From IMG/VR virus record IMGVR_UViG_3300040801_001309, positions 1-51,095 of that record: a DNA stretch of 51,095 nt; one strand, given 5' to 3'. How positions within the stretch are numbered: position 1 is the first letter of the stretch; the number at the start of each line of letters is the position of its first letter. The DNA comes from a virus. Positions 14,084-38,404 of this stretch are shown here, piece after piece. A program made the position numbers and the translations under genes. The notes beneath the pieces are model-generated. The model was not told where the DNA came from. It made no database searches and saw only the letters and a list, made by a program, of their open reading frames with translations.

Positions 14084-14980
14084 CTATATTTCTATATGTA
14101 GCTTTCCAATGTTCAAATCTTCAAGAATAATTTCACCACACATCTGTGCAATTTTCAAACATAGTCTTCCAGAAATGGTTGTACTCATCGCCAACCATTT
14201 ATTACTGAATCTAAAGCCACTCATTCCAGTCAAACCATAACTTGAGTTGGCATTAATCTTCATAGCTAATTGTCTTCTATCATATAATTGGTAAATATCA
14301 CTCGATGTTCCATGTTCCAATTCCGCTTGATATCGTTTCTTTTTATACTCATCACGCATGTTAATTCTATTACTCAAGAAATCATTCATTATTCCGAATT
14401 TATGTTCATGAGTATAAAACATACAACCTGATAGATTTAAATTTACATTTTTTTGTTTAACATAGTTTCCAATATTATTACCATCTAATCGTAAAATGGA
14501 TAATGTTGGATTAACTATATTTTCAATACTATATATATGATCTGATGTTACTTCCCCATTTAATAAATAATCATGACAGAAACTATTATATTCATTTCCA
14601 GATGGATGAATATCTGTATATAGATCTATAAACGGTATTAAATATAATTTACTTGTTAGCCAATCTTCTCTTGTTTTTGGATTGAATAAATCTCGTAGGG
14701 GTCTGTTTATTCGTTTCAATTTATTTAATAGATACATAATTATAAAATACATATTTTGTTTATATTCTTTTTTATTTTGTGGATCTAATTTTTCCACAAA
14801 ATTATAAACATCTTCTAATATGGCTAATGGTATTGCTGAATGTAAATCTTGGCCTGTTCCAAGCACAGGCCCAATGAAATTTTCAAGCATATTATATGCA
14901 AGTGGGTCTATTATTCTTCCCCAATATGTATCAAATGATATGTTATTTTCTTGCATTTTAGAAGGGTACAGTGCTTTTGC
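14084..14980 (-). CDS. Family-B DNA polymerase, exon 2 (motif A second half to motif B)
   Basis: The segment begins AKALYPS, the SLYPS part of motif A, and contains motif B as KINANSSYGLTG. The ORF-track TTG start at 14983 is probably intron sequence. Confidence 0.8.
   Translation of the reverse strand, partial: AKALYPSKMQENNISFDTYWGRIIDPLAYNMLENFIGPVLGTGQDLHSAIPLAILEDVYNFVEKLDPQNKKEYKQNMYFIIMYLLNKLKRINRPLRDLFNPKTREDWLTSKLYLIPFIDLYTDIHPSGNEYNSFCHDYLLNGEVTSDHIYSIENIVNPTLSILRLDGNNIGNYVKQKNVNLNLSGCMFYTHEHKFGIMNDFLSNRINMRDEYKKKRYQAELEHGTSSDIYQLYDRRQLAMKINANSSYGLTGMSGFRFSNKWLAMSTTISGRLCLKIAQMCGEIILEDLNIGKLHIEI
14088..14097 (-). promoter_or_regulatory. ATATAGAAAT promoter-like box
   Basis: Minus-sense CTACATATAGAAATATAG overlaps the last codons of PolB exon 2, upstream of 13617..13931. 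Confidence 0.4.
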
Positions 14981-15087
14981 CAAAATGTTAGCTACTAATT
15001 ACTTAGTAGTTCAGACTATATCATCTTGACAATTGTGCCAAGAATGTCGTGTAGTCGTTTGCTAGTAGTTATATATTTTAAGTATTG

Positions 15088-15097
15088 ATATAGAAAT
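15088..15097 (+). promoter_or_regulatory. ATATAGAAAT box in plus orientation
   Basis: This is the only plus-sense copy. It lies about 50 nt upstream of the plus-strand ORF 15148..15636. Confidence 0.45.
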
Positions 15098-15147
15098 ATA
15101 CATTATTAGTATGTATTAATAACTTTTATTTAACAAGGAGAATTATC

Positions 15148-15636
15148 ATGAGGAAAAAATTGACTATGTTGTCGGCGCTCATTTGTTTGATGTCTGTCTC
15201 AATTTGTTTTGGGGAGACAAGGTGTTGCCTCCCAGGAGTCACACCATCATTTGGGGTTTTCTTTAATAACGTTCAATTGGTTGACAACTTTTACATTGTT
15301 GTCAACGAAACTGATTTTACAGGAAAAGTAACACAATCTATCTTGACACCAATGGATTTGATTGATGGTCGAGTTGTATACCCATCAACACTTATTGCTG
15401 ACGCAGGATATACGCTAACTGTATCATCCGTAATGTTCTATCAAGATGATATTGGATTTGAAGGTACTTTTTGGTATGGTGGTTCTGTAATAAAAACTAT
15501 TCCAGTCACATCTGATTTGTCAGATGTGACAGAGATCTTCATTTATGTTAAGAAACAAATTTTCGATGTGAATGGTGATGGTAAAACTGGATTAGAGGAA
15601 GTGATATATATACTAAGAAGTCTATCAGGAATGTAA
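15148..15636 (+). CDS. Secreted protein with C-terminal dockerin/EF-hand-like Ca-binding motif
   Basis: RBS AAGGAGAATTATC-ATG. Signal peptide MRKKLTMLSALICLMSVSICFG. C-terminal motif DVNGDGKTGLEEVIYILRSLSG. It has its own terminator, is GC-elevated, and lies antisense inside the PolB intron. Confidence 0.7.
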   Translation: MRKKLTMLSALICLMSVSICFGETRCCLPGVTPSFGVFFNNVQLVDNFYIVVNETDFTGKVTQSILTPMDLIDGRVVYPSTLIADAGYTLTVSSVMFYQDDIGFEGTFWYGGSVIKTIPVTSDLSDVTEIFIYVKKQIFDVNGDGKTGLEEVIYILRSLSGM

Positions 15637-15642
15637 CTACTA

Positions 15643-15690
15643 CTGCGGGTGCTCCATAATAGGAGTTTCCCGCAGGAAGACATTTTTTTA
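15643..15690 (+). terminator. Terminator of the plus-strand secreted-protein gene
   Basis: CTGCGGG...CCCGCAG hairpin followed by a T-run (CATTTTTTTA). Confidence 0.6.
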
Positions 15691-15726
15691 CGTTTTCTAT
15701 TGCTAGAAAACGGGACACAAAAGTTT

Positions 15727-16974
15727 ATCCAAATCAGATATAACACCGTTGACTTGATCAACGATTTTACCATACCCTTCTTTAACATATGCTCCTACAT
15801 ATCTACTTAATATTTTTTTGTATATTTTTTGTTCAACGCCATTATTAATTGTCCATTTGATTCTATTATCTTTTGGCTTTGGTAGAGTATCAATTTCTTG
15901 TTGTGAAATACCAAAAAAGTTTTCTTTTGCAATGCCGTGTTTTACTCTTATTTTTTTTTGATCTAAAACATATGAAAAATAAGTATCAAATAATGCTGCT
16001 GGACCTCTCATACTAAGTCCAAGAGGAGTTTTCATATCCCTACGCAACATATTATGTAGTTCAATATGTCTGAGTTTAAGATCAAGTAATCTACAGAGGA
16101 CAACATCTATAACATTATATTTAATATATGTTTCAGGATGTTCTTCGTATAATCTGTCTAAATTTGTACCATCATCCTTGTAGTCTAATTTTTTTAATCC
16201 AAGTTCCGCATTTGATATCCAATCAAGAGTATACGATGGTTGTAATTTACCATAGTTTAATCCTGGATTCATTATTTCGCCACGAGGAGTATATAGATAT
16301 TTGATATCCATACTTGGTAAATCAGGAATAATAATAAATGTTCCTTTTTTACCCATTTTTCTTTCTTTTACTATTCCTACATGACTCATAATATCTGCTA
16401 CTTTTTGTCTATCTCCAAGAAGATTTAAAAGTCGACCATAGATATATGGAATATCATATTTATCGCTATTGAATCCTGATATTATGTGTGTATTTATACC
16501 ATGAATTTTATTAAACATGTCCGTAAGCATTTTAACTTCATCTGTATAAAGTAAAATCTTACAACTTTCATCATCATTAATATATCTGGTTTTATTTCCC
16601 TTTTTATCTTCAAATAATTCTTGTTTAATTTCTTGTTCTAATGCTGATATGTCTATATTTGCAATTTTTGTTTTAATTATATCCAGTACAAGAAAATAAC
16701 AAGTATAGCATTTCTCAATAGAGCTATAAATTGTTACTGCGCTTATTGGACTTACACATCCTTCTTCAACTTTAAATTTACCAGTGTTGTGAGTGTAAAC
16801 CTCAATGTCATGATATACTGTGTGTAAATTTTGTACAAGATCAATATTGTCATTTGGATATTTTAGATAATGTTGAATTGCGTAATATTGTTGTGGTTCT
16901 ACTTCGGCATTATAAATATTATCGTAATTTAATTTGCCTGTTTCTAGATTGTCTATTAGTTGATTAAAGTTCAA
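15727..16974 (-). CDS. Family-B DNA polymerase, exon 1 (3'-5' exonuclease domain to motif A Asp)
   Basis: Exo I is YHDIEVYT, Exo II is SGFNSDKYDIPYIY and Exo III is KYNVIDVVL. It ends in GAYVKE...GVISDLD, the first half of motif A. In the unspliced frame a stop follows 7 codons later. The start codon is TTG. Confidence 0.8.
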
Positions 16975-16977
16975 ATA

Positions 16978-17255
16978 TTATACATCCTCCTTTATTGTGT
17001 TTTTCCATAGCTTCCATTCTTCTTTTGTTATTTTATATTTATTATAAATATCTTTTGGAATACATGATTCGTCAATATATTCTGGATCAAACTCATAATC
17101 TTTTCCAAGAGTTTCTTTAGCCATAATATATCTATTTCCAATTTGAACACATCCAATACATGCACATTGACCATATTCTCCACCACACACCATCTGGTTC
17201 GCCAACTTTCCGGAATTGTTTCTATTATTGCATTAATTTCTTCTATAGTTTTCAT
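16978..17255 (-). CDS. Small Cys-rich hypothetical gene; two overlapping frames
   Basis: The frame starting at 17255 has the RBS (GGAGAGCACT-ATG) and a plausible N-terminus. The frame ending at 16978 has the plausible C-terminus (CGGEYGQCACIGC...KEEWKLWKNTIKEDV). Confidence 0.4.
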
Positions 17256-17267
17256 AGTGCTCTCCGT

Positions 17268-17310
17268 ATTTCTATATTGTGTTGTTAATTGTTAAATTCC
17301 GCCGCAATAA
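17268..17310 (-). promoter_or_regulatory. TTATTGCGGCGGAA-N21-ATATAGAAAT promoter-like element
   Basis: Both boxes are intergenic and lie upstream of the 17255 start. Confidence 0.5.
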
Positions 17311-17353
17311 ACCGTTAAAAAAAGTCCACGGATTCCCTCCGTGGAAATATGTA

Positions 17354-18955
17354 TTAAATTTCATTATAAATTCGTTCTTTTAAAGCATCATAATTATATA
17401 GTATATCAGACGCATATCTCAACATTTTACCGTTGGTATCATTCAATCTGAATAATTCATCATCACCTTCGAATAAACTACTTCCAGATAACGGTGGATT
17501 TGTATTAATTAAAATAGTTCTTCCATCAACTCCTAATTTCTTAATTGATAGTTTATAATCATTTATATCCGGTCCAGAATTATGATGTTCATCTGTAATA
17601 AATATTACAGCATTTGTATCAAATCCTTTCTCTCTACTATCTTCAATAGCAAATTCAAGACCACCAATACAATCTGTTGCGCTAACTCCATATTTATCTT
17701 TAATATATGGATGTAGTTCACTAATAAATTTATTTACAAATTCATTAGGAGCTAACTCAATATATTGTGAAAACCATTCAGTTTCATCTCCTTTTACATG
17801 AGTATCACCAAAAATGTAAAATTTAGAATTATAAAATATATTTTTCATTAATGCTAAATATTTAACAGATTTCAAAAGATTATCACTAAACATTGATCCA
17901 CTAACATCAAATACAATTACAGGATTAACCCAAGATTCAAAGTTGAATAAACAGTGATCTTTGAGAATATTGTCAATTGCATCTAATATAGCTGGATGGA
18001 TATATGGATAACCCATTGCACCACTGTAATAGTTATAGTGAGCAGGAACCATAATAAGTTCCATTGGATCTATCATTCTGTCATTGCCACTTGTAAATAC
18101 ACTTCTTAATCTATTTTCAAGTTTTGTTGCATCTTCACCATTGAGTTTTGTAAGATTTGCCAGTAACTCTTTAATAGCAATTTTGTCAATATTTATACTT
18201 ATAAACTCTTTAGCAGCAGATGTTGATACATTTGTATCTGACAAGACTGCTCTTAGGCTTTCGCCTTTAGTAACCTTACCAGTTTCTTCATCAACTTCAA
18301 CTTTGAGTGCTGCACCACTATTATTCTTAATAATAGACAAGTACAGATCAGACATTTTATCGTCTACTGGTTTAGGTTGAAATCCATGAATCAAGTTTAC
18401 AAGTTTGATCCATTTTTTCTTCATCTTTCTATTTTTCAAAGTATGTTCTTTGAAAGACATAAGACTATCCCGCATAGCATTGTATGCCCACTGTGGAAGC
18501 ATTCTTTTTGCCCAACCAGTTTTCCATCTTTCATTGTGTAGATCAAATTCCGGATGAAGATTATGATAATAACAAATAGCATTTGTTATGAAGTCCGGTC
18601 TTGTAAAAATGTTTCTAATCAATTTAGATAGGACTTTTTGATCACCATTATCAATGGCTCTTGTAATAGCAACAGTTGGCCCAAGACGCATACCGATTGT
18701 CATTGCAACAAAATTGATCATACCATAAAAATATTTTGGATCATTTCTATGAACCAAGTCAATAAGACGCTCAATATTCTGTAACTTATCAGTGTCGCTG
18801 TAATAAAAGTTTCTCTCTGTATCCAGTAATTTTGCCTGGTTTAGATTGCTTTTTCTTGGTCTGAAACTCAAAAGACTAACTATTAACTGTTTGTCTTCAG
18901 GCATTTTAATATCAGTTGTTGCTGTTGTTACACGATTTGCTTTAGGATTAAACAT
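17354..18955 (-). CDS. rsr: Ro60-like protein (TROVE domain plus vWA domain)
   Basis: 533 aa. TROVE-like segments are IFTRPDFITNAICYY and KKWIKLVNLIHGFQPKP (compare Ro ..HPKP). The C-terminal vWA domain has the MIDAS motif VIVFDVSGSM at about residue 350, matching Ro60 architecture. Confidence 0.75.
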   Translation of the reverse strand: MFNPKANRVTTATTDIKMPEDKQLIVSLLSFRPRKSNLNQAKLLDTERNFYYSDTDKLQNIERLIDLVHRNDPKYFYGMINFVAMTIGMRLGPTVAITRAIDNGDQKVLSKLIRNIFTRPDFITNAICYYHNLHPEFDLHNERWKTGWAKRMLPQWAYNAMRDSLMSFKEHTLKNRKMKKKWIKLVNLIHGFQPKPVDDKMSDLYLSIIKNNSGAALKVEVDEETGKVTKGESLRAVLSDTNVSTSAAKEFISINIDKIAIKELLANLTKLNGEDATKLENRLRSVFTSGNDRMIDPMELIMVPAHYNYYSGAMGYPYIHPAILDAIDNILKDHCLFNFESWVNPVIVFDVSGSMFSDNLLKSVKYLALMKNIFYNSKFYIFGDTHVKGDETEWFSQYIELAPNEFVNKFISELHPYIKDKYGVSATDCIGGLEFAIEDSREKGFDTNAVIFITDEHHNSGPDINDYKLSIKKLGVDGRTILINTNPPLSGSSLFEGDDELFRLNDTNGKMLRYASDILYNYDALKERIYNEI

Positions 18956-20018
18956 TGGTATTCTCCTTTGATTTTATCACAACCTGTTTATATAATCTTC
19001 GTTTTTGATGGAATGATAGACTATCCCACTTACTAACAACAAAATTAGAGTAATTACTATTTTCACAAAGATGGTTTCTTTCTTCTTTTGATAAATCGTC
19101 CCATTTGTCAATAATATCATCATTATATTTGTTATATTCACAAAAGTATATTTTTTGTCGAAATGTTAATTCATCCCACTTACTTACGATAAAGTCTGTA
19201 TAATTGATATTAGAGCAAAGAGATTCCTTTTGCCCCTTTGATAATATATTCCATTGTTCAGCAATAAACTCACTATATTTAACATTGGCACATGCTTTAT
19301 TTTTTTGGAATGTGTCCAGTTTATCCCACATTCCAATAATAAAATCACTATATGCATTATTATAGCACAGATTTGTTTTTTGTGTTACTGATAATGCATC
19401 CCATTTATCGACAATTGATTGAATATAATCACTAACGTAACATAAAATTTCTTTTTGTCTATCTGTTAGTTCATCCCACTTAGTTGCAAGAAATTCACAA
19501 TACTCTTTATTACAACTTAAGTTGTTTCGTTGCATATTTGATAGGTTGTCCCAATCATTAACAATGATATCGTTATATGAACTATCGTAACATAAAATTT
19601 CTTTTTGTCTATTTGATAGTTCATTCCATTTTTCAACAATAATTTCATGACATATATCATGCGTATTTTTGATTTCATCCCAACGGTCAAGTATTAATCT
19701 ACTATCAATTTGTTCGTCTGTAAGATAAAATCGTTTACATCTGAATTTTGATTCGCCAGGTATAATTGTTATATAATTATTTTCTATTGGAACATAGCAT
19801 TTGTACACAGGTCCATTCATGAATAACAATGCTGAAAGTGGATTGTCAAATAAATTTAAACCATATGAACATAATTTATTTATATTGGTATCAACAACAA
19901 GTGATTCATACCAATGATTAGTATCATATGTAAAATTATCTTTAACGTTTCGCATATCTTTTCTAAAGACTTTATATGCAATGTAGCACTGTGTATTTTG
20001 AAATAATATCGTTTCCAT
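18948..20018 (-). CDS. Tandem 25-aa repeat protein
   Basis: The start is moved to the ATG preceded by GAAAGGAATAAACTT. The C-terminal two thirds consist of WDxLSxxQKxxLCxNxxYxxFIVxK repeats. Confidence 0.6.
   Translation of the reverse strand: METILFQNTQCYIAYKVFRKDMRNVKDNFTYDTNHWYESLVVDTNINKLCSYGLNLFDNPLSALLFMNGPVYKCYVPIENNYITIIPGESKFRCKRFYLTDEQIDSRLILDRWDEIKNTHDICHEIIVEKWNELSNRQKEILCYDSSYNDIIVNDWDNLSNMQRNNLSCNKEYCEFLATKWDELTDRQKEILCYVSDYIQSIVDKWDALSVTQKTNLCYNNAYSDFIIGMWDKLDTFQKNKACANVKYSEFIAEQWNILSKGQKESLCSNINYTDFIVSKWDELTFRQKIYFCEYNKYNDDIIDKWDDLSKEERNHLCENSNYSNFVVSKWDSLSFHQKRRLYKQVVIKSKENTNV
18990..19682 (-). repeat. About nine in-frame 75-bp tandem coding repeats
   Basis: Trp residues recur every 25 aa, at ORF residues 157, 182, 207, 232, 257, 282, 307, 332 and 357. 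Confidence 0.8.
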
Positions 20019-20312
20019 AAGTTTATTCCTTTCACATGTGGGATAGCAGTGAACTGATATCCCATTGAAAATATTATTTGAATGTTTCGAATTCACTGTC
20101 CCAATACGTTACTGCATATTCGCACATGGCTATTAGATATACAGGGAATACAACGTAGAATCCTGCTGTGTTGATTACTTTGAGAAATAAGTCAACACCT
20201 TTTGTATTGGACATGTCTTTTATTTCAATGATCCATTTCTTCGCAAACATATATCCAATAAGGACATATCAGAATGTTGCAAATACGCCCAAAATCATCA
20301 GTATTAGTTGTA

Positions 20313-20645
20313 TCATTCCGATTTTCCTTTCTTCTGTGTTTTGCCCTTTTTGAACTTGGGCTTTGATTTGTTTTCAACATGGTTGTCATCTTTAACAGGG
20401 ACATCTTCTTTCTTTTTTGCAACAATATCCCATCTCTGAGCATCGGCCAAAATTGCTTTGTCAGATGATCGGACATATCTTTTTAGCCCATTGGGATGAT
20501 TCTTCCCATTTGTCACTGTGTATGGGCCGTCACCAGTGTGATGATGCTCAAACCATTTTTTCGCAACTTTCGCAGACTCCCGTGATGGGAATCCGTCTGT
20601 GACAATCTTTCCTGTTCCGTCCGCTACAGCGTATGCTCCTGCCAT
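20313..20645 (-). CDS. Hypothetical protein with Lys-rich tail (110 aa), GC-elevated
   Basis: RBS GAAAGGAGAGAAACT-ATG, with an ATATAGAAAT box upstream. Confidence 0.6.
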   Translation of the reverse strand: MAGAYAVADGTGKIVTDGFPSRESAKVAKKWFEHHHTGDGPYTVTNGKNHPNGLKRYVRSSDKAILADAQRWDIVAKKKEDVPVKDDNHVENKSKPKFKKGKTQKKGKSE

Positions 20646-20701
20646 AGTTTCTCTCCTTTCATGGTTGTTTAAATAAAAAGTTATACTACACTGATTTGTT
20701 C

Positions 20702-20711
20702 ATTTCTATAT
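20702..20711 (-). promoter_or_regulatory. ATATAGAAAT promoter-like box
   Basis: Minus-sense GGCATATATAGAAATGAAC lies upstream of 20645. Confidence 0.45.
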
Positions 20712-20740
20712 ATGCCTATTGAAAACTAAAAATTTGTGTC

Positions 20741-20775
20741 AATAAAAAAATTGTAGTTATGATATTCATAACTAC
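20741..20775 (-). terminator. Terminator at the downstream end of the tRNA cluster
   Basis: GTAGTTATGA-ATA-TCATAACTAC hairpin followed by AATTTTTTTATT. Confidence 0.65.
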
Positions 20776-20836
20776 ATGTGTATCGTTGGAAGCCTTTAAT
20801 ATATAAGGCTTTCTATTTTGTCGATATTGTTTAAAG

Positions 20837-20908
20837 CTGGGACGGAGGGCCATGATCCCCCATGACAAGATTCAAAATCTTGCATCCTACCAATTGGATG
20901 ACATCCCA
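20837..20908 (-). tRNA. tRNA-Gln(TTG): tRNA-Gln (anticodon TTG)
   Basis: Manual cloverleaf. Acceptor is TGGGATG/CGTCCCA and the anticodon arm is CAAGA-TTTTGAA-TCTTG. The T-loop ATCATGG is non-canonical. Confidence 0.7.
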
Positions 20909-20912
20909 ATGA

Positions 20913-20984
20913 TTGGACGTGTGAGGATCAAACTCACGTAATCACGATTAAAAGTCGTGTGCCTAGTCACTCGGCCAACGTCCA
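20913..20984 (-). tRNA. tRNA-Lys(TTT): tRNA-Lys (anticodon TTT)
   Basis: Acceptor TGGACGT/ACGTCCA. Anticodon arm CACGA-CTTTTAA-TCGTG. T-arm GTGAG-TTTGATC-CTCAC. Confidence 0.7.
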
Positions 20985-21116
20985 AGAATAACCCACTTGA
21001 TTTGTGCTTCTGATAGAGAGGCATAGCAGGTATTGTTCAGCAACTATTACTAGATGCTATTTAAAGCCTCGATGGTTTAATTTATTGTTAAACCCTTGTC
21101 GATATACAATAATGTT

Positions 21117-21782: not shown

Positions 21783-21789
21783 TTATTTC

Positions 21790-22790: not shown

Positions 22791-22814
22791 TTCAATTTCT
22801 TTTGTAATATGATA

Positions 22815-22905: not shown

Positions 22906-22913
22906 ATTTAAAT

Positions 22914-23567: not shown

Positions 23568-23579
23568 TTATACATAGTT

Positions 23580-28353: not shown

Positions 28354-28367
28354 GTTGGTGTCCTCCT

Positions 28368-29353: not shown

Positions 29354-29361
29354 GTGTTTTA

Positions 29362-30542: not shown

Positions 30543-30543
30543 T

Positions 30544-30963
30544 TTAATAATCCTTTCTAATGGCTAAGTTGTTAGTTACTAATAATTCTGATAAATTCCA
30601 TTCAAGACCATCAATTATAACATATACATCAGCAACAAATCTGAAATACTTACCTTTACTTATATTTCGCAGATATATCTTCGATGCATAGTCACATTGA
30701 TCTGCGGTAAATAGTTTTGCCCTTAATGCTTTTTCATACACTTTTCCTGATGTTCCTCGTAATTCTGGACAGTCTATACCTCTTAATCTTATAGACATGT
30801 TTTGTGATACAATTGGGACACAGCTATATTCAGGTATATTACATGTTATTGTGTCTCCATCGTAATTTCGAATATACTTACATGTTACGTCATCACCTAT
30901 AGCATATGTGCTATATACCATGATAATTATAAGAATATTAATAAATATTTTCATTTTATACAA
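30544..30963 (-). CDS. Secreted thermonuclease (SNase)-like nuclease
   Basis: Signal/TM segment is IFINILIIIMVYSTYA. SNase-like motifs are IRNYDGDTITC and IRLRGIDCPE. Confidence 0.65.
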   Translation of the reverse strand: MYKMKIFINILIIIMVYSTYAIGDDVTCKYIRNYDGDTITCNIPEYSCVPIVSQNMSIRLRGIDCPELRGTSGKVYEKALRAKLFTADQCDYASKIYLRNISKGKYFRFVADVYVIIDGLEWNLSELLVTNNLAIRKDY

Positions 30964-31802
30964 CTCTCCATATATTTCGCTAATAATCCATCATTTGATT
31001 GAAAAACATAGTCTTCTGGAACTGTTGATTTTCCCAGAATATGTTTAATGACTTGACATACATATGTCGATGGTACACATTTCAATTCGATTGAACCATC
31101 GAGATACTTTTTGTAATACATTGATGTTTTTCCAATACGATGAACCCTGAAAGTTTCTACTTTGGCTCTGTAAGAATTTATGTGTAAATACTCAAATCGA
31201 CCATGTAGGATTATTTCATCAGCAGATATTCCAAAAACATCTGCCGGAAGCATCGCCATACGTTCGATAAGCTCTGTTACGATTTGTTCCATTGCCCATC
31301 GCTGTAGTGTTTGCAATCTTCCTGGAAGAGCTTTTGATACAGTTCCAAATAAAATCTGTCGTAATTTCTTAGCTCTTTTGAAATAGTCATATTCCGTTAT
31401 TGATGCTATGAAATCTTTCCAGGTATCATATTCAACAGCATTAAATTTCCTAACCATTTGAAAGTTTGCTTCACATAGATCAATACTGGTAAACATTTTC
31501 ATATGATTTTCTGGATGATATAACTTTTGGATATTTCTTGAATATGTGCTATTTCTAATACCATATTCATTCATATCCATAGTTAACATGTTTTTGAAGT
31601 TTTCATTTTCACCGATAATATACGATGCTTCATCTATAACTGTTTGCCGCAACACACTATCAATTGGTTCGGCTAATTCCAGTGCCTCTTTGACAGGATA
31701 ATACTCGTTTAGAACATCACATTGATGTCTAAAAATAGTATCATCTTTAAAGACGGTCACTGGAATACCGAAGTCTTTCATGACTCTTCGGTAATCCAGC
31801 AT
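30951..31802 (-). CDS. PolB palm-like small protein (paralogue of 45169..46050)
   Basis: 283 aa. Motifs are SIDLCEANF (motif A-like), DFIASIT, KKLRQILFG, ISADEIIL (motif C-like) and FRVHRIGKTSMYYKKYL (KxY-like). Confidence 0.4.
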   Translation of the reverse strand: MLDYRRVMKDFGIPVTVFKDDTIFRHQCDVLNEYYPVKEALELAEPIDSVLRQTVIDEASYIIGENENFKNMLTMDMNEYGIRNSTYSRNIQKLYHPENHMKMFTSIDLCEANFQMVRKFNAVEYDTWKDFIASITEYDYFKRAKKLRQILFGTVSKALPGRLQTLQRWAMEQIVTELIERMAMLPADVFGISADEIILHGRFEYLHINSYRAKVETFRVHRIGKTSMYYKKYLDGSIELKCVPSTYVCQVIKHILGKSTVPEDYVFQSNDGLLAKYMESCIK

Positions 31803-31844
31803 GGTTTTTCCTTTCTTGTTAAAAGTTTATATATCAGTCTCTTT

Positions 31845-31854
31845 ATTTCTATAT
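31845..31854 (-). promoter_or_regulatory. ATATAGAAAT promoter-like box
   Basis: Minus-sense GATTAATATAGAAATAAAGAG lies upstream of 31802. Confidence 0.45.
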
Positions 31855-32039
31855 TAATCACGTAATTCTTGTAGATGTTCTTCATATTCAAGAGCATCTG
31901 CTAATTCAAACATTAATTTATCATACGTTTCAAGTTGTTCTAGCATATCTTGTTGGCTAAGAATTTCAACAATTGTTAAATCTCCAGGTGCAAGTTTTCT
32001 TATTAACTCATAAAGTTTCATTAAAGTATGTACTCCCAA
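31854..32039 (-). CDS. Small acidic protein (61 aa)
   Basis: ORF that overlaps the upstream gene. Confidence 0.45.
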   Translation of the reverse strand: MGVHTLMKLYELIRKLAPGDLTIVEILSQQDMLEQLETYDKLMFELADALEYEEHLQELRD

Positions 32040-32908
32040 TTTAAGTTATTGACATAGCTATATCCCCAATTTTCAAATTTAGTAATATGATCTTTAAATT
32101 TTGAAAATGCCTTTGTTAATGGTAATAGGATTTTTGTTTCTTTAGACAATTTTTCACCACTGTTAAATAAACATAATGTTTTATCATGTCTATTTTTAAC
32201 TTGTTCAACAATACCATTATTTAGTTTTTCTTCATCAAAATAGTTAAGTGATTTATGTTTAAATCCTTTAACTCCCATATCCAGTATTATTGATTTCATT
32301 TGTTTAAGCTCATCATTATTTCCTGTAAATGGCATACACATTACTCTTGTAAAAATATCAGCATTTACAAGTCTTGTTAGTGTATGTAATCTTTTTGAAA
32401 CTTTTGGTGCAGTTCCTTCTAACATTCGTGCTTTTTCTTCGTCCAATGTTGTTATAGTTATTTCAATTTGCACTTGGTGTTTCATTTCTGTTAATAAGTC
32501 TATATGATCGATAATTTTATTACTCTTAGTTAAAATATGCAACATCCAATCCGGATGTTTTTTAAATATAAGAAGTATCTCTTTCATTATATCATGTTTA
32601 TTCATAATGGCCGGATGATAACTATCACATGATTCATTAATTTGTACTCTTTTGAAATATTGTGGTAAATTTTTATATTTTTTGCTATTTAGTTCTGTTT
32701 CTAATACATTTGGCAACCAATCTTTAATAGACACTTGATTTGGAACTATGTTATAACTATACGGCGGTACCTGTAAATAACAATATTTACATCCATAAAA
32801 ACATCCAACAGTTGGATTCAGTGTAAAAGGAAATGTGCTAACATTGAACCCAACGTGGGGTTCAAGTGCTCTTGGTTTTTTTGGCATTTTATGATATACT
32901 GTATTCAT
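32021..32908 (-). CDS. Radical SAM protein, spore-photoproduct-lyase/DNA-photolyase-like (COG1533-like)
   Basis: CxxxCxxC cluster motif GCFYGCKYCY near the N-terminus. Length is 295 aa. Confidence 0.55.
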   Translation of the reverse strand: MNTVYHKMPKKPRALEPHVGFNVSTFPFTLNPTVGCFYGCKYCYLQVPPYSYNIVPNQVSIKDWLPNVLETELNSKKYKNLPQYFKRVQINESCDSYHPAIMNKHDIMKEILLIFKKHPDWMLHILTKSNKIIDHIDLLTEMKHQVQIEITITTLDEEKARMLEGTAPKVSKRLHTLTRLVNADIFTRVMCMPFTGNNDELKQMKSIILDMGVKGFKHKSLNYFDEEKLNNGIVEQVKNRHDKTLCLFNSGEKLSKETKILLPLTKAFSKFKDHITKFENWGYSYVNNLNWEYIL

Positions 32909-33078
32909 TTATCTCCTTTATGTTTATCGTAAAAGTTTAATGCTTCTGTTATAATTTCTGCGGTTTCTTTATTAAAAATTGTTACAAATCTTTCGTCATC
33001 TTTCAATATTAACCAATCATTACAGTTACACGTTTCTGGATGGCATCGACACCAATTTTCAACTAATTTGTATTTCAT
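32905..33078 (-). CDS. Small Cys-rich protein (57 aa, below ORF-track cutoff)
   Basis: It has ATGA overlaps at both ends. The product is MKYKLVENWCRCHPETCNCNDW... Confidence 0.45.
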   Translation of the reverse strand: MKYKLVENWCRCHPETCNCNDWLILKDDERFVTIFNKETAEIITEALNFYDKHKGDK

Positions 33079-33383
33079 GTATTATATCCTTTTATCAAAT
33101 GTGATTCGTCCAATGTGCTACCTTCTTGTACTCGTAGGACTATTTCAGCAGCCGACATAAACTCTTCCCGACCACCAAGTGCCAAATGAAACCTGAATTT
33201 TTCAAAGCATACCTGACATTCAAATACACCAAAAAATCCTGCTACTGATTCTGTATATCCTACAAGTTTTTCTGGTTTATCGTCAGAAAATATTTCATAA
33301 CAATTGTTTGGGCATACCTGAAATTCTACAGCAGGTATTGCATTACTGTCCATTTGTTTTAAATAAAAATCACCTATTTTCAT
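33075..33383 (-). CDS. Hypothetical zinc-binding protein (102 aa)
   Basis: Contains CPNNC and CQVC pairs. RBS GAGGAGGATAA-ATG. Confidence 0.55.
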   Translation of the reverse strand: MKIGDFYLKQMDSNAIPAVEFQVCPNNCYEIFSDDKPEKLVGYTESVAGFFGVFECQVCFEKFRFHLALGGREEFMSAAEIVLRVQEGSTLDESHLIKGYNT

Positions 33384-33437
33384 TTATCCTCCTCATATGT
33401 TAATGTATCCTTAAGAACCCATTCGTTTTTTGACAGT

Positions 33438-33447
33438 ATTTCTATAT
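33438..33447 (-). promoter_or_regulatory. ATATAGAAAT promoter-like box
   Basis: Minus-sense ATAGTCATATAGAAATACTG lies upstream of 33383. Confidence 0.45.
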
Positions 33448-33472
33448 GACTATTATGAAAATAAAAAACATT

Positions 33473-33490
33473 GCCCTCATATGTGAGGGC
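33473..33490. terminator. Bidirectional terminator hairpin
   Basis: GCCCTCA-TATG-TGAGGGC is flanked by an A-run and a T-run. Confidence 0.6.
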
Positions 33491-33515
33491 TTTTTTGGCG
33501 CAATATATTAGCAGA

Positions 33516-33677
33516 TTAGTACGTCAGAGATCCGTTACGGATTCCTTCGCCGAGCTGTTTCAAAGACTCCGGATCTGCTTTACGCAAAGACAACAGTTCG
33601 GAATTTTCAATCGGCGCAAAGAATTCTTTAATCAACTGAATGTTTGTTTTTTCGGGTGCAGTTGCTGCATCAGACAT
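33516..33677 (-). CDS. Small GC-elevated protein (53 aa), paralogue of 33808..34050
   Basis: The start is moved to the ATG after AAAGGAGAAATACT. The shared motif is F..(L)RK.DP...K.L..GI.NG..TY. Confidence 0.55.
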   Translation of the reverse strand: MSDAATAPEKTNIQLIKEFFAPIENSELLSLRKADPESLKQLGEGIRNGSLTY

Positions 33678-33745
33678 AGTATTTCTCCTTTGTGTGTAGT
33701 AAATAAAAATCGGCACACATCATGTATGCCTTCGATACGTTTTTA

Positions 33746-33755
33746 ATTTCTATAT
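33746..33755 (-). promoter_or_regulatory. ATATAGAAAT promoter-like box
   Basis: Minus-sense AAACTATATATAGAAATTAAA lies upstream of 33677. Confidence 0.45.
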
Positions 33756-33770
33756 ATAGTTTTTAATTGT

Positions 33771-33799
33771 TAAAAAAATCTCTCCCTAAAGAGGGAGAG
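33771..33799 (-). terminator. Rho-independent terminator
   Basis: CTCTCCCTC-TT-TAGGGAGAG hairpin followed by ATTTTTTTAAC. Confidence 0.65.
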
Positions 33800-33807
33800 T
33801 GTATTGG

Positions 33808-34050
33808 TTAACCAACAACAAGTTTCGGAGTGCCGTTGGGATATGTTTCTGTGCCATTGTTTATCCCATCAAGAAGGTCTTTATACCCAAGAGGGTCTTC
33901 TTTTCTCATATCAAGCAGCCCTTCTTTTTTAGCATCTGATGCAGACATCCCAAAATACTTTGTGACATCTGTCAGTTTTCCAGCGTTTTTAGATTCTTCC
34001 AAGGCAGCGTCAAATTCTGCCTGAGTTACTTTTTTAACAGGTCTTGTCAT
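33808..34050 (-). CDS. Small GC-elevated protein (80 aa)
   Basis: RBS AAAAAGGAGAACACTATT-ATG. The C-terminal motif is MRKEDPLGYKDLLDGINNGTETY. Confidence 0.6.
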   Translation of the reverse strand: MTRPVKKVTQAEFDAALEESKNAGKLTDVTKYFGMSASDAKKEGLLDMRKEDPLGYKDLLDGINNGTETYPNGTPKLVVG

Positions 34051-34074
34051 AATAGTGTTCTCCTTTTTTTAGTT

Positions 34075-34565
34075 AATATTTAGACATGCGATATGCATAT
34101 CTGAAGTGGAGATGGCGGCTTCGAAGCCGCGTCCGCCCTATTACAAATATACGAATTTACACGCATAGTTCATGTTTAAGTTTCGATTATTAAGGATCAT
34201 GAACAACCCAATTATAATCTAGTTCACAAAATTAGCCTGGATAATACGTGAACTTACTATCCATTGTTCCACAGAAGTCTATCGGATATTTGGTTCAGAT
34301 CTGTGGGGTTCATTCCCAATCCGAGTAGCATTACGCTGCTACAGCAAAGTTATAATCGTCAGCGATTATTTTAAGGTTTGGATTTAACGCTTCGCAGCGA
34401 CGTGAATCATATAAATGTGTTAGTACGTCAAAGTCCAATTCATCCCCATATACTCCAACACTTCTGGAGAGTTATTATTCAATTTTATCTAACAATATAC
34501 ACTTCTGTGTATGATTTTTTCATGATCTTGTAGTACCAAAATAAGATCGTCTTTTTGAAATATGA
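34075..34565 (-). other. About 490-nt ORF-free, GC-elevated, highly structured region (candidate large ncRNA)
   Basis: Many hairpins occur in minus sense. They include CGCT-GCGA-AGCG, GTAGCA-GCGTAA-TGCTAC, AATCG-CTGA-CGATT, GCGGCT-TCGA-AGCCGC, AGTTCAC/GTGAACT, GTTCATG/CATGAAC, and the competing TCGGAT/ATCCGA and CCACAGA/TCTGTGG pairs. Confidence 0.4.
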
Positions 34566-34568
34566 CAT

Positions 34569-35207
34569 TTAATAATCATTTGTATATCCCTTCGGTTTTT
34601 CTGGAAGATGCATCCAGTGATAAATATCATCACACAGAAAACCACGGTCATTTGAAAAACAATCTAATGTTAATACCTCGTCATCATGACCTATTTTCTC
34701 AATACTGTATTCAGCAATTTCGATTTTATCAAAAACATCAAAGTATGTTAATACTTTTTGTCCTTCTTTTGGTTTTTCTTCAAATATATCAACCCATCCA
34801 TTATTTTTATATGATATTTTATCTACAGTAAACCCGTTTATGGTGTTTATTGTTTCTGGCGTTATAAAATCCAGAATAATTGGATCCAATTCAAGATGGT
34901 ATAACACTATTGACTTTATGAATTGTGATTTAATAAACAATTCATAATATTCTAATCGTGTTTCTTCATCGAATGTAAAGAAATTCCATGTATGATATGC
35001 ATCAGATGAATCTTCCCAAGTTCTAACCGATTGTTTTTTAATATATTCTAATTCGTCTTTTTGAACAAATTCAAATTGATTATAAATATTCTTAATGTCT
35101 TTTAAACTTTCTTTAAGCCAGCATTTTTCATTTTTCGCTTTGTCCCATGTATTAACACAATATAAGGGCCGCTTCCAATGAAGTCCACGCATTGATATTA
35201 CGTACAT
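34569..35207 (-). CDS. Hypothetical protein with DUF551-like C-terminus
   Basis: C-terminal pattern KPKEGQKVLTYFD...IYHWMHLPEKPKG. The N-terminal domain is paralogous to 35198..35626. Confidence 0.5.
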   Translation of the reverse strand: MYVISMRGLHWKRPLYCVNTWDKAKNEKCWLKESLKDIKNIYNQFEFVQKDELEYIKKQSVRTWEDSSDAYHTWNFFTFDEETRLEYYELFIKSQFIKSIVLYHLELDPIILDFITPETINTINGFTVDKISYKNNGWVDIFEEKPKEGQKVLTYFDVFDKIEIAEYSIEKIGHDDEVLTLDCFSNDRGFLCDDIYHWMHLPEKPKGYTNDY

Positions 35208-35626
35208 TTAATATATGTCTCCTGATATCCAAATTGTAATGAATCTGATACAATATCAATAGTATCAATATATTTCCACATATCACACGTTAAATGATAT
35301 TTGAATATTGATTTAAGAAACTTTTCTTGTAATGTCTTTTCATACTCTTCAAGATATTCCAATTCATCCCAAAGGATTTCATGCCAAATTTTTAGACCTT
35401 CATCCCAAACCGACGGTGTAGATAAAGGAAAAAGATATTCGTAATCAAGTTCGGCATTTATCTCATCAAATTCAAAAGTTTCGATAAATTCAAATTGTTC
35501 ATAGATATTTCTAGCTTTCTTAAGAGTATCTGTTAGATTAGCAATTTCAATTATAGCTTGTTGTTCAGTTTCAACTAAGTATAATAGTTGTGAACTATCA
35601 TACTCGTATTTAAATATTGCAAACAT
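35198..35626 (-). CDS. Hypothetical protein (142 aa), paralogous N-domain
   Basis: It shares NIYEQFEF...FLKSIFKYHL with the neighbouring gene. Confidence 0.5.
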   Translation of the reverse strand: MFAIFKYEYDSSQLLYLVETEQQAIIEIANLTDTLKKARNIYEQFEFIETFEFDEINAELDYEYLFPLSTPSVWDEGLKIWHEILWDELEYLEEYEKTLQEKFLKSIFKYHLTCDMWKYIDTIDIVSDSLQFGYQETYIKCT

Positions 35627-36230
35627 ATGGACATATATCCTTTAATTCACACATATTACATTTCGGGTTTTTTGCTGTGCATATTGATCTTCCATGATAA
35701 ATTAATATGTGTGGAAATTGAACTCTCCAATTTTCAGGGACTATTTTTAAAAGTGTTTGTTCTATTTTCGTTGGATCTATGTTAAACGACAATTCCAAAC
35801 GATTACATAATCGTTTGACATGTGTATCAACAACAATTCCTTCTGATTTTCCTGTAAGTTCACCAACAACAACGTTTATTGTTTTTCGTCCAACACCAGG
35901 AAGGGATGCTAAATCATCGATATTAAATTCATCTTTGTCTTTAAGGATGTTGCATATCCCAATAAGATATTTTGTTTTTCTCTCCCATAGACCAATTTTT
36001 TGCAGAATTTGTTCGATGTCTGTCCTGTTGGCTTCTACAACATGTCCTGGTGTTGGATATTTATTAAATAATTCTTCTGTTACTTTATTTACTGTTTCAT
36101 CTTTTGCTTGTGTTGATAACATTACTGCTACCAGTAATTCAAAAGAGTTTTTATAATTTAATGCTATTCGATTAGGGTATTTCGTTCCTAATCGAATTAT
36201 GATTTCCTTAACTTTTTTTATTCGTGTCAT
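35610..36230 (-). CDS. nth: Endonuclease III (Nth) DNA glycosylase/AP lyase
   Basis: Motifs are LVAVMLSTQAKDETVNKVT, the HhH LASLPGVGRKTINVV, and VDTHVKRLCNRL. The C-terminal 4Fe-4S cluster is CTAKNPKCNMCELKDIC. Confidence 0.85.
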   Translation of the reverse strand: MTRIKKVKEIIIRLGTKYPNRIALNYKNSFELLVAVMLSTQAKDETVNKVTEELFNKYPTPGHVVEANRTDIEQILQKIGLWERKTKYLIGICNILKDKDEFNIDDLASLPGVGRKTINVVVGELTGKSEGIVVDTHVKRLCNRLELSFNIDPTKIEQTLLKIVPENWRVQFPHILIYHGRSICTAKNPKCNMCELKDICPYVCNI

Positions 36231-36234
36231 TCTT

Positions 36235-36717
36235 CTAAATATTCATCAAAATAGTTTTCAGTTTATTACCATCACACATAGGAAATTGTGCTTTAAGTTC
36301 TTTCATAGCCATCATTCGGTTCTTGTATGAATCAAGATCAAGATTATCACTAAGCCATTGTTTAATTTCATCATCAGATGGTTCTTTCGGAATATAATTC
36401 ATAATCGTCTGAATATACTTAGATGAGGATACAAGGTCACTATCAAGTCTATTGATTTCACTTTGAATATATTCATCAACTTTTTTACCAAGTGATGCAA
36501 GTTTTGATTGAGGAATCTTTGCCATGACGATACATCTTTTTTCACTTGCAATTAGTTTTCGGCAAATCTTAATAACTATTTCATCAGTGATATCTGCTTC
36601 TTTATCTTTGTACTCAGTGTAGCATGATTTAATTTGACGAAGTGCTTTTTTAGATTCTTTGTCGTCGTTGATAATGGCATTTTTCAAGTCGATATTGATC
36701 TGTTCTGTTAGTTTCAT
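36235..36717 (-). CDS. yqeY: YqeY/GatB C-terminal-domain-like protein
   Basis: The start is moved to MKLTEQINIDLKNAI (RBS GAAAGGAAAACAA). Other YqeY-like segments are LRQIKS, YIPKEPSDDEIKQWL and AMKELKAQFPMCDGNKLKTILMN. Confidence 0.6.
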   Translation of the reverse strand: MKLTEQINIDLKNAIINDDKESKKALRQIKSCYTEYKDKEADITDEIVIKICRKLIASEKRCIVMAKIPQSKLASLGKKVDEYIQSEINRLDSDLVSSSKYIQTIMNYIPKEPSDDEIKQWLSDNLDLDSYKNRMMAMKELKAQFPMCDGNKLKTILMNI

Positions 36718-36730
36718 TTGTTTTCCTTTC

Positions 36731-36916
36731 TTACCAATCCCGTAATCCTTCGTTATATCCAATACGATATCCTTGCTCAAATATATCATTATCTTTACAT
36801 GTGCATCTATCAAGATCAAGAACCATTTCACCACTTTCCAATGATACAAGTTGTTCTTTTCCACAATCTTTGCATTTGATTATTAAATCACAAACGTATA
36901 CTTGTGTAGAAGACAT
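36731..36916 (-). CDS. Small zinc-ribbon protein (61 aa)
   Basis: The start is at MSSTQVYVCDL after AAAGGACACTATA. It contains the CKDCG and CTC motifs. Confidence 0.5.
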   Translation of the reverse strand: MSSTQVYVCDLIIKCKDCGKEQLVSLESGEMVLDLDRCTCKDNDIFEQGYRIGYNEGLRDW

Positions 36917-36944
36917 TATAGTGTCCTTTCTTAAATAAATATAC

Positions 36945-37017
36945 AAGGGCTATAGGAATTGAACCTATCCAGTGAAGTTTGGAGCCTCACTCGCCAGCCT
37001 TGGAACATTAGCCCCCC
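36945..37017 (-). tRNA. tRNA-Trp(CCA): tRNA-Trp (anticodon CCA), isolated, weak D-arm
   Basis: Acceptor is GGGGGCT/AGCCCTT and the anticodon arm is TGAGG-CTCCAAA-CTTCA. The T-arm is ATAGG-TTCAATT-CCTAT. The D-stem pairs poorly. Confidence 0.55.
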
Positions 37018-37047
37018 AAAGTAATAAAAATAGTTTATGCTTGAATG

Positions 37048-37057
37048 ATTTCTATAT
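37048..37057 (-). promoter_or_regulatory. ATATAGAAAT promoter-like box upstream of tRNA-Trp
   Basis: Minus-sense AAATATATAGAAATCATTC. Confidence 0.45.
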
Positions 37058-37072
37058 ATTTCTTGGAAATAT

Positions 37073-38404
37073 TTAAATTTTCAAAACATCTAATACTCTT
37101 TCACACGTAGTTGAAAATATTTTATTCCAATGCATTTCAACATCAATAGACAATCCGAATTTTTCCATTTTCCGCCGCAATAAATCAACATCATATGTAT
37201 ACGGGAAACATATTCCATTCATGTCTTTATGAAGAACTCCACTATCATTAAAAATATCTTTATTTTTAAATAAACAATAAATAAACTTTCCAGCAGAACC
37301 GAATGAAAATACTTCTTTTTCATTCATGTAATTATATATTTTCATACCATTATACATTAACGCTTTTTTACCCCATTTACCAGGAATACCAATATCTCCA
37401 TAATCAAACTTTTTAATTAATTCTATATATCGCATTCTGTATTCTTTAACAATTTCCATACATGCTTCATGTTTATTCATAATATCCATATTAAGTGAAA
37501 TTTTAACTATTAAATCATCAAGAAGTTTTCTAGTTAATTCTGTCATATCTGATTTAATACCAAGATTACTTGTCTTTTTAACTTTTGGTTTTTCGTAAAT
37601 TTCACCTTCTTTTACATCATATAGATATGCATAATTCTTTTTAACATGTAAGAATATAATCGCTAAAATAACAAGTTCTGGTTTGAAATCTGTTTTATTA
37701 TGTTCAATTGAAATGTTACTTCTTGGTAACAACCAGTCATTATAATATTTAGCAATACTATTATTAATTAATGATGCTCCAAATTCTGTTATTTTCCATC
37801 GCTCTTTAGGAGATTTATTTTCTGCCCCTTTATATGGTATTTTAATGAAAATACTATCAGTGTTATGAACACATATTCCATTTGCAAAAAAGTTCTGTGT
37901 TTCGGGAACACAAATATCGTACACATATCCTTCAAAATCAAATTGTTTCTTTTCAATTATCTTTGATGTATAATATATTTCTTCTCCATGATCTGTTTTT
38001 TCTATACAAATATTTGTATCTTTTGGTAATATTGCGGCGGGTTTATCATCAACAATATTAATTAAACTATGCTGATCTGTAACTTTTACAGATCGTCCAG
38101 TTGATGTTTTAATTTCCCACATTTTGCCTTTATACCAATGGCGCATTATGTATGAACAATTAGAAGTATAAACTTCATGGTTTCTTATAGATACTGTTGG
38201 TGCATTAATCCCATATAAATATTCTTTATTAATTTTTATATTTGGTTCTCTGCATGTTGCGAATAGGTGCCACCAGCATTCGATTGTTCTAGTATTATTT
38301 CTAATAGATATATTACTATCACCATGAACACTATCACCGTAAAGTATGTGTTTTAAAAATCCTGGTTCTTCGACTTTTTTATAAAAGTCTTTAGGCAATA
38401 TCAT
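37073..38404 (-). CDS. Family-B DNA polymerase C-terminal fragment (motif C, KxY, thumb) interrupted by an intein
   Basis: The N-terminus ends in ...FLKHILYGD. The intein follows, and then TDSIFIKIP, which restores YGDTDS. The KxY motif is LHVKKNYAYL. Its start overlaps the upstream stop (TAATG). Confidence 0.8.
   Translation of the reverse strand: MILPKDFYKKVEEPGFLKHILYGDSVHGDSNISIRNNTRTIECWWHLFATCREPNIKINKEYLYGINAPTVSIRNHEVYTSNCSYIMRHWYKGKMWEIKTSTGRSVKVTDQHSLINIVDDKPAAILPKDTNICIEKTDHGEEIYYTSKIIEKKQFDFEGYVYDICVPETQNFFANGICVHNTDSIFIKIPYKGAENKSPKERWKITEFGASLINNSIAKYYNDWLLPRSNISIEHNKTDFKPELVILAIIFLHVKKNYAYLYDVKEGEIYEKPKVKKTSNLGIKSDMTELTRKLLDDLIVKISLNMDIMNKHEACMEIVKEYRMRYIELIKKFDYGDIGIPGKWGKKALMYNGMKIYNYMNEKEVFSFGSAGKFIYCLFKNKDIFNDSGVLHKDMNGICFPYTYDVDLLRRKMEKFGLSIDVEMHWNKIFSTTCERVLDVLKI
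37862..38332 (-). mobile_element. Mini-intein (157 aa) inserted in the PolB YGD/TDS motif
   Basis: Block A is SVHGDSNISI, block B is GRSVKVTDQHSL, and blocks F/G are YVYDICVPETQNFFANGICVHN followed by Thr+1. There is no endonuclease domain. Confidence 0.75.

Follow-up and report, generated by a model that had tools for sequence, protein, structure and literature searches.

We analyzed a 51,095-nucleotide (nt) stretch of viral DNA (IMG/VR record IMGVR_UViG_3300040801_001309, positions 1 to 51,095; the whole stretch is referred to here as the window) that carries the pieces of a family-B DNA polymerase (PolB). The window has a GC content of 31% and looks like part of a large phage, with a transfer-messenger RNA (tmRNA), 14 tRNAs, a group I intron recognized by Rfam, and a long co-directional cluster of minus-strand genes that includes topoisomerase II subunits, a clamp-loader ATPase, and a helicase. 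A preliminary description of this DNA had placed polymerase coding sequence in three pieces on one strand (15727..16974, 14084..14980, and 37073..38404); open reading frame (ORF) translations and Pfam matches bore out these positions, and the strand is the minus strand. The pieces make up two genes, polN and polC, which very probably encode the replicative, T4 gp43-like PolB of an uncultured large phage. From the start of polC to the stop of polN the locus measures 24.3 kb overall, of which 20.1 kb separate the start of polN at 16974 from the stop of polC at 37073. Its features are as follows (aa, amino acids):

38404..37073, minus strand: polC, encoding motif C, the KxY motif, the last part of the palm, and the thumb; an intein lies between YGD and TDS
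38333..38404, minus strand: polC N-extein (MILPKDFYKKVEEPGFLKHILYGD, 24 aa), which brings the N-terminal half of motif C; its ATG shares 1 nt with the upstream stop (TAATG)
37862..38332, minus strand: mini-intein of 157 aa between YGD and TDS, with no endonuclease domain
37073..37861, minus strand: polC C-extein, with TDS (second half of motif C), KKNYAY (KxY), the rest of the palm, and the thumb
16975..37072: spacer of 20.1 kb between polC and polN
16974..14084, minus strand: polN, encoding the exonuclease domain, palm motif A, and the fingers with motif B; an intron lies inside motif A
15727..16974, minus strand: polN exon 1, with the N-terminal domain, the 3′-5′ exonuclease (Exo I DIE, Exo II, Exo III), and the N-terminal half of motif A (last residues, ...VISDLD)
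14981..15726, minus strand: group I intron of 746 nt inside motif A, with the 5′ splice site after U15727 and the 3′-terminal G at 14981
14084..14980, minus strand: polN exon 2, with AKALYPS (second half of motif A), the fingers with motif B (KINANSSYG), and the palm helix that comes next

Exon 1 of polN starts with a TTG codon 3 nt past an upstream stop and matched the Pfam exonuclease domain DNA_pol_B_exo1 (PF03104; E = 4.6e-10), and its N-terminus and invariant residues aligned with those of 23 homologs. The exonuclease motifs were present as HDIEVY, GFNSDKYDIPY, and YNVIDV (Exo I, DxE; Exo II, Nx2-3F/YD; and Exo III, Yx3D, respectively), and residues D56, I57, E58, D174, Y177, Y286, and D290 were invariant across the family in the homolog alignment. 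Exon 2 matched Pfam DNA_pol_B (E = 8e-16) and ends in ...GEIILEDLNIGKLHIEI (last residues, HIEI), followed by a TAG stop at 14084..14086. This stop had been placed inside a promoter box, which was not supported: the TAG lies outside every promoter-like site on its own strand, and promoter-like matches in the region were no commoner than in shuffled sequences (22 found versus 26.1 expected). The spliced polN product is 714 aa long.

The reading frame of polC runs from MILPKD..ILYGD through the 157-aa intein to TDSIFI..KKNYAY and the thumb, and the mature, intein-free product is 286 aa long. As the preliminary description had stated, polC has its own coupled start (TAATG, a 1-nt overlap with the upstream stop) and is interrupted by an intein. 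The translation contains the motifs of a class 1 intein, namely, Ser1 (SVHGDS), block B (TDQH), block F (YVYDICVPETQNFFANG), and a terminal ICVHN followed by Thr+1, and the element matched Pfam Intein_splicing (PF14890; E = 6.8e-13), TIGR01443 (33.3 bits; cutoff, 15.6), and TIGR01445 (24.5 bits; cutoff, 24.5). Its removal in silico restored the invariant YGDTDS and a gap-free alignment with 19 intein-free homologs. The 19 stand-alone polC homologs (277-304 aa) start with MLPKDFY..VE.PG.LKHILYGDTDS, aligning at their N-termini with the N-extein, and are invariant at YGDTDS and KKxY. In other relatives, inteins of 150-400 aa occupy the same site in polC (YGD/S; here and below, a slash within a motif marks the insertion point). 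Once the exons were ligated and the intein was removed, the polymerase motifs DLDAKALYPS, KINANSSYG, YGDTDS, and KKNYAY were all invariant in two homolog alignments (A1 and A2). The possibility that the pieces lack catalytic residues had also been raised; after careful alignment across homologs, all of these residues were found to be retained.

An alignment with RB69 gp43 had been suggested for defining the break points. The polN profile, searched against solved structures (E = 4e-42; exon 1 region on RB69 residues 105-380), aligned to residue ~607, whereas the polC profile (E = 2.6e-7; C-extein on residues 616-773) placed LYGDTDS at residue 616. The break is therefore at about residues 607-616, and the cut falls in the loop between the post-finger helix and the motif C strand. 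We take the RB69 domain boundaries to mean that motif A and motif C, both of which contribute metal-binding aspartates, reside on separate polypeptides here. In unsplit outgroup polymerases (24-30% identity), a single chain holds motifs A, B, C, and KxY. In contrast to this single-polypeptide organization of a gp43-type PolB, motifs A and B are on polN and motifs C and KxY are on polC, and the split is conserved in the clade. In one outgroup protein (P0045), residue 759 is the counterpart of both polN residue 712 and polC residue 3, and therefore nothing is missing at the break. The preliminary description had seen no splicing element at this point, and we agree: neither end gave an intein match, and the N-terminus of polC is homologous to unsplit polymerase. 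Without a splicing element, two polypeptides would be needed, in line with the earlier statement that the active enzyme must assemble from at least two.

The same break recurs in relatives. About 40 polN homologs (685-718 aa; 34-48% identity) covered just the first 70% of the reconstructed enzyme, used as a 998-aa query, and their C-terminal ends coincide at one alignment position, which is that of the polN end; beyond the conserved GEIxL, their tails are 5-13 residues long and variable. A search of 1.84 billion representative proteins with a profile of the stand-alone polC homologs returned 103 relatives at E <= 1e-30, none longer than 698 aa, and chains with motifs B and C unsplit appeared only from about E = 2e-30 onwards. 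These 103 are representatives of clusters built at 50% identity; by a manual count of the result table, ~45 are stand-alone (~270-347 aa), ~40 bear an intein, and the rest are fragments. In a comparison with 50,697 deposited phage records, polN matched best with gp43A of Acinetobacter phage 133 (29% identity), and polC had no match. On the strength of these alignments, we regard the motif B/C break as a conserved gene fission, not a lesion or a product of decay. Separately, we asked whether stop-codon recoding might account for the breaks and dismissed it: TAA (22), TGA (9), and TAG (2) are all used as stops, no suppressor tRNA was found, and read-through of the polN TAG yields nothing polymerase-like.

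The gene order is reversed, with the gene for the C-terminal part upstream. In 11 distinct related contigs, polC likewise lies upstream of polN on the same strand, and the two genes are separated by a 14-nt overlap, a 9-nt spacer, or 0.54, 0.9, 1.6, 2.06, 2.07, 2.2, 2.6, 9.6, or 13.7 kb; the overlap and the 9-nt spacer belong to the two most distant of these relatives (27-34% identity). One 285-kb relative genome has the N-then-C order, with the genes 17.8 kb apart, and the nearest relatives (41-48% identity) have no partner gene within 10 kb. Compared across these contigs, the 20.1 kb of the window is, as we read it, the far end of a spacing continuum that starts at overlap. The preliminary description had called the combination of an intron, an intein, and a long-distance split in one gene unusual. 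The split itself is real; however, it is not peculiar to this genome, since the two-gene architecture is found throughout the clade.

The first break, within polN, had been ascribed to a group I intron, and the evidence upholds this. Motif A reads IDLDA[TS]ALYPS in homologs without an insertion, and in silico ligation at exon boundaries 15727 and 14980 exactly restored it at the correct length (DLD + A, giving DLDAKALYPS). The predicted junction joins ...GAUUUGGAU to GCAAAAGCA, with junction codons GAU/GCA. We assigned the intron helices by hand. P1 pairs GGAU/A with UGUCC (guide at 15717-15713), with a U-G pair at the 5′ splice site, and the P10 guide directly 5′ of it (CUUUUG, 15723-15718) pairs with CAAAAG at positions 2-7 of exon 2. 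The remaining helices are P2 (15712-15691, GCAA loop), P3 (15684-15679 with 15048-15043, AAUGUC/GACAUU), P4 (15675-15669 with 15649-15643, CUGCGGG/CCCGCAG), P5 (15665-15652), P6 (15641-15635 with 15070-15064, AGUAGUU/AACUACU; enclosing a loop of ~565 nt), P7 (15056-15052 with 15018-15014, GACUA/UAGUC), P8 (15042-15025, 7 bp), and P9 (15009-14992, GUAA loop). The J8/7-P7 consensus GAUGAUAUAGUC is present, and the intron ends in ...UUUUG at 14981. For free-energy folding, the P6 loop was replaced by GAAA to give a 186-nt version; its unconstrained minimum-energy fold recovered P2, P4, P5, P6, P7, P8, and P9 (z = -7.4 versus shuffles). From its sequence and predicted fold, we conclude that the 746-nt element is a genuine group I intron, one that would be expected to splice.

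Relatives of polN carry inteins at DLDA/[ST], one codon (3 nt) from the intron insertion point in the window (DLD/A), and the intron and these inteins therefore hit almost the same site in motif A. Such motif A inteins were seen at loci L041 (10597..12331) and L042 (3019..3473) and in proteins P0016, P0021, P0027, P0031, and P0040. In a distant relative (L034, 7961..12894), polC has an intein of ~380 aa, the size of those with an endonuclease, at YGD/S; polN follows directly and is broken at motif B (KVIMNTT/) by an insertion with a 234-aa ORF that has an HNH-like CX2C...H pattern. In this phage, insertions thus occupy several motifs of a single polymerase.

The loop closed by P6 contains an additional ORF:

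15148..15636, plus strand: ORF162, 162 aa, on the opposite strand inside the intron P6 loop

A strong AAGGAG ribosome-binding site precedes ORF162, and its translation has a signal-peptide-like N-terminus and, at the other end, a dockerin/EF-hand-like DVNGDGKTGLEEVIYIL motif. ORF162 had no match in Pfam, PHROG, or NCBIfam, is unlike any known homing endonuclease, and among 5.8 billion proteins recovered itself alone. The GC content over ORF162 is 35-38%, compared to 25-31% in the flanks, and ORF162 may be a cargo gene carried by the intron.

Structural models were obtained for a polC homolog and for a polN-polC fusion. When a polC homolog (P0052) was modeled alone, the thumb was confident and the palm half, including motif C, had a predicted local distance difference test score (pLDDT) of <50; the best structural match of this model was RB69 gp43 (probability 1.0). 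We also modeled an artificial fusion of polN and polC from an alignment (A5) in which the stand-alone polC rows were left out. There, the polN part was confident, the motif C hairpin reached a pLDDT of ~74, and the model matched RB69 and T4 gp43 (E = 2e-22; probability 1.0; TM score, 0.45-0.55). The models agree with, but do not prove, a need for polN in the folding of the polC palm half. A joint alignment of the fusion with polN and polC homologs (A4) was discarded, as it placed polC rows inside polN.

We weighed four other explanations against the two-gene reading. The gene lies in four DNA pieces, the genome is known from the window alone, and the window contains no other polymerase; the pieces could be decaying remnants of a contiguous polB in a phage that replicates with another polymerase. 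We consider this extremely improbable: the exons and exteins are free of frameshifts and internal stops, and Exo I-III and motifs A, B, C, and KxY are intact and invariant in comparison with 19-24 homologs at 34-50% identity. The same fission point is found in more than 100 protein clusters, and the neighborhood of the genes agrees with that in relatives. It is equally hard to credit that the halves are joined covalently at the motif B/C break, by a split intein or a trans-splicing intron. Split inteins do occur in PolB genes, as in Nanoarchaeum equitans and PolB16 OarG (PMC4104785; PMC10189870); however, the Pfam and TIGRFAM intein models matched neither the polN C-terminus nor the polC N-terminus, the polN tail is short and variable, and unsplit outgroups have polymerase sequence homologous to the start of polC, so that neither end is an intein fragment. 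The 14-nt overlap or 9-nt spacing and the reversed order in relatives also leave no room for intron halves. Finally, the 20-kb separation and the reversed order might be an artifact of contig assembly, given that the source is a metagenome and that no independent contig spanning both genes was recovered (the longest other, 18.9 kb). Such an artifact has almost no chance of being the explanation, because three other samples show an identical local context for polC, independent relatives repeat the polC-then-polN order with multikilobase gaps (9.6 and 13.7 kb), and the nearest relatives too lack a close partner gene.

A different alternative would leave the two genes in place and remove the RNA splicing, so that exons 1 and 2 are translated separately and the enzyme has three subunits, being split also within motif A. 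In its favor, exon 1 meets an in-frame stop 9 codons past DLD, an in-frame TTG lies 3 nt ahead of exon 2, an opposite-strand gene fills the gap, and the Rfam threshold was missed. Nevertheless, no ribosome-binding site precedes this TTG, every homolog interrupted at motif A has an intein or intron there, and the group I architecture is complete (U-G pair, P10, GAUGAUAUAGUC, terminal G, and GNRA loops on P2 and P9), leaving a three-subunit enzyme very unlikely. As for the threshold, the ~565-nt insertion in P6 probably blocks a full-length Rfam match; when the 3′ part of the intron was scanned alone with RF00028 (Intron_gpI), the model aligned GAUGAUAUAGUCU and P9 with high posterior probability, and the J8/7-P7 consensus fell within the aligned part.

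Set against the reading of polN and polC as a spliced, two-subunit polymerase are the following points. The search for a second polymerase gene, which found none, covered the part of the genome in the window. The Rfam group I model gave no match in a scan of the whole 3.2-kb region 13900..17100, and the match of RF00028 to the intron 3′ part alone (E = 4.4e-4; 22.6 bits) lies under the gathering score of 50, compared to 86 bits for the other group I intron in the window (in tRNA-Leu). The fused structural model is an artificial single chain with a shallow alignment over polC and a poor thumb, and it does not prove a heterodimer interface. Lastly, both splicing in vivo and assembly of the heterodimer are things we infer from sequence.

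Together, these data lead us to infer that the enzyme is a non-covalent heterodimer with a composite active site, in which one subunit would depend on RNA splicing and the other on protein splicing. In the proposed pathway, the 746-nt intron would leave the polN transcript, joining ...SDLD to AKALYPS..., and the 157-aa mini-intein would excise itself from the polC precursor, joining ...ILYGD to TDSIFI.... The 714-aa polN and 286-aa polC products would then associate non-covalently, such that the polN motif A strand and the polC motif C hairpin would come together in a single palm sheet with a single two-metal active site. The fission is presumably old, and the overlap or 9-nt spacing in distant members suggests translational coupling. 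A translationally coupled polC-polN pair may have been the ancestral state, with a spacer that later grew by insertions to as much as the 20 kb seen here, and the two most conserved motifs would have been colonized secondarily by mobile elements. More broadly, and with confidence a little short of even, we tentatively propose that the window belongs to a large and wholly uncultured clade of big phages (250-315 kb contigs) with an obligately heterodimeric PolB, whose subunits would share the palm and active site and are encoded in circularly permuted order (palm-C and thumb first; exonuclease, palm-A, and fingers second). This architecture is undescribed to the extent of the literature searched and of 50,697 deposited phage genomes. 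These may descend from a coupled polC-polN ancestor, possibly by tandem duplication and loss of the outer halves, with the spacer inflated by tRNA, tmRNA, and homing-endonuclease cargo.

The spacer holds ~24 protein ORFs, 14 called tRNAs, one intron-containing tRNA-Leu, and the tmRNA. Its proteins include two free-standing HNH endonucleases, a radical-SAM protein, EndoIII-like and YqeY-like proteins, and unknown ORFs. The two HNH_3 genes (21117..21782 and 24865..25539, both minus strand) are paralogs with an N-terminal helix-turn-helix and lie within the tRNA array. The tmRNA (34104..34447, minus strand; Rfam, 98 bits) and a tRNA-Trp just downstream of polC (36944..37016) were also located. 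ARAGORN and the Rfam tRNA model both missed a tRNA-Leu(UAA) gene (23652..24012, minus strand), which is split between anticodon positions 34 and 35 by a 243-nt group I intron (23737..23979; RF00028, 86 bits); the 85-nt product spliced in silico was called as tRNA-Leu(taa), with the CCA end encoded. We take this position to be the classical site of the cyanobacterial and plastid tRNA-Leu intron. To our knowledge, a group I intron at that site is unusual for a phage.

On its upstream side, polC sits at the end of a replication module with the topoisomerase II subunits, clamp loader, and helicase. The window shares with a 294-kb relative the context of topoisomerase A subunit, clamp loader, GyrB-like protein, helicase, polC, and YqeY. 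Also in this module is a gene (41197..42702, minus strand) for a 501-aa protein with a uracil-DNA glycosylase domain; in unsplit outgroup proteins P0044 and P0046, such a domain (PF03167) is fused in one chain with the polymerase domains. Just upstream of polC (38404..39844, minus strand) lie several small tandem ORFs of 88-124 aa with a common N-terminal ...LIWE... motif, which look like paralogs of one another. In the first 12 kb of the window, a Pfam scan of ten ORFs gave a WDGH domain as the sole match. Some members of the polymerase family were deposited under cellular names (e.g., Candidatus Woesearchaeota archaeon) or in cellular bins (Lentimicrobiaceae, Neomarinimicrobiota, Bacillales, and Nitrospiraceae), among them P0061 and loci L057-L063; these are probably misbinned phage contigs, and their host assignment is unreliable.

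Several features of this locus have counterparts in known systems. In Aeromonas phages 25 and 44RR and Acinetobacter phage 133, a T4-type PolB is likewise made from two cistrons, 43A and 43B, whose products must associate; the preliminary description had mentioned that split PolB genes occur in some T4-related phages, and the annotation of phage 133 shows such a split at a different break site. In phage 133, gp43A (506 aa) and gp43B (392 aa) are encoded in the N-then-C order, 2.9 kb apart, whereas here the order is C-then-N with a gap of up to 20 kb. The phage 133 break also falls in the fingers, between motifs A and B, with gp43B starting before KILLNSLYG, whereas polN and polC are parted between motifs B and C. 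For Aeromonas phage 25, the split subunits co-purify and are active, and the gene (43B) also has a group I intron, according to PMC2988022.

Among archaea, the split PolB3 of Methanobacteriales (Kelman, Pietrokovski and Hurwitz 1999) is described in PMC4104785 as two non-adjacent genes whose polypeptides are both needed, with no intein halves left and with an origin from an intein site proposed. PolB3 resembles polN and polC in having two non-adjacent genes and no intein halves; however, it is archaeal, cellular, and not T4-like. The PolB3 break may lie close to motif C, and we know of no reversed adjacent arrangement in Methanobacteriales PolB3. Common descent with the archaeal split is unlikely, because the closest solved relatives of the proteins studied here are phage gp43 and not archaeal PolB. 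Inteins within YGDTDS of family-B polymerases, with a Ser or Thr nucleophile, occur at the archaeal "pol-c" site and in PolB of giant viruses. At the level of the motif, the polC intein resembles these; its host, in contrast, is a stand-alone 286-aa subunit. The N. equitans PolB halves are joined by a split intein (PMC4104785), and PolB16 OarG, from a PolB of the sheep gut metagenome, is a split intein that lies after GDTD in motif C (PMC10189870), two residues from the polC intein site. In both of these systems, the halves bear intein fragments and are trans-spliced, whereas the intein of the window is contiguous within polC, and the gene break lies 24 residues upstream of it without an intein fragment.

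Large phages accumulate introns and inteins, and large gut phages do so in essential genes (PMC7824862; PMC12880540). The polN intron resembles phage introns (those of T4 td, nrdB, and nrdD; phage 25 43B; the Bacillus phage G polymerase; and Jug and crAss-like phages) in that it interrupts an essential replication gene at a conserved catalytic motif. It differs in having no sense-strand endonuclease ORF; the P6 loop instead accommodates, on the other strand, an orphan ORF of secreted type. In the literature searched, we found no description of a PolB with a motif B/C break site, of the reversed gene order, or of the clade itself. Split PolBs, polymerase introns, and motif C inteins are thus each known, while the break site and the reversed order appear to be new.

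These results bear on how a replicative polymerase can be built. A family-B replicative enzyme tolerates a cut just before the motif C strand, with its catalytic-aspartate motifs on separate polypeptides, and since more than 100 clusters at 50% identity keep a stand-alone polC, selection has maintained this cut. Having been tested by evolution, the break is a natural split site that can inform ideas on polymerase assembly and the engineering of split polymerases, and the spacer series from overlap to 20 kb offers a clear case of a fissioned gene pair separating while its products co-operate. Annotation pipelines would label such phages as polymerase-fragmented or polymerase-less unless the ~290-aa polC family is recognized. 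Within the family, motif A (with an intron here and inteins 3 nt off in relatives) and motif C (with inteins in ~40% of polC clusters) are hotspots for mobile elements.

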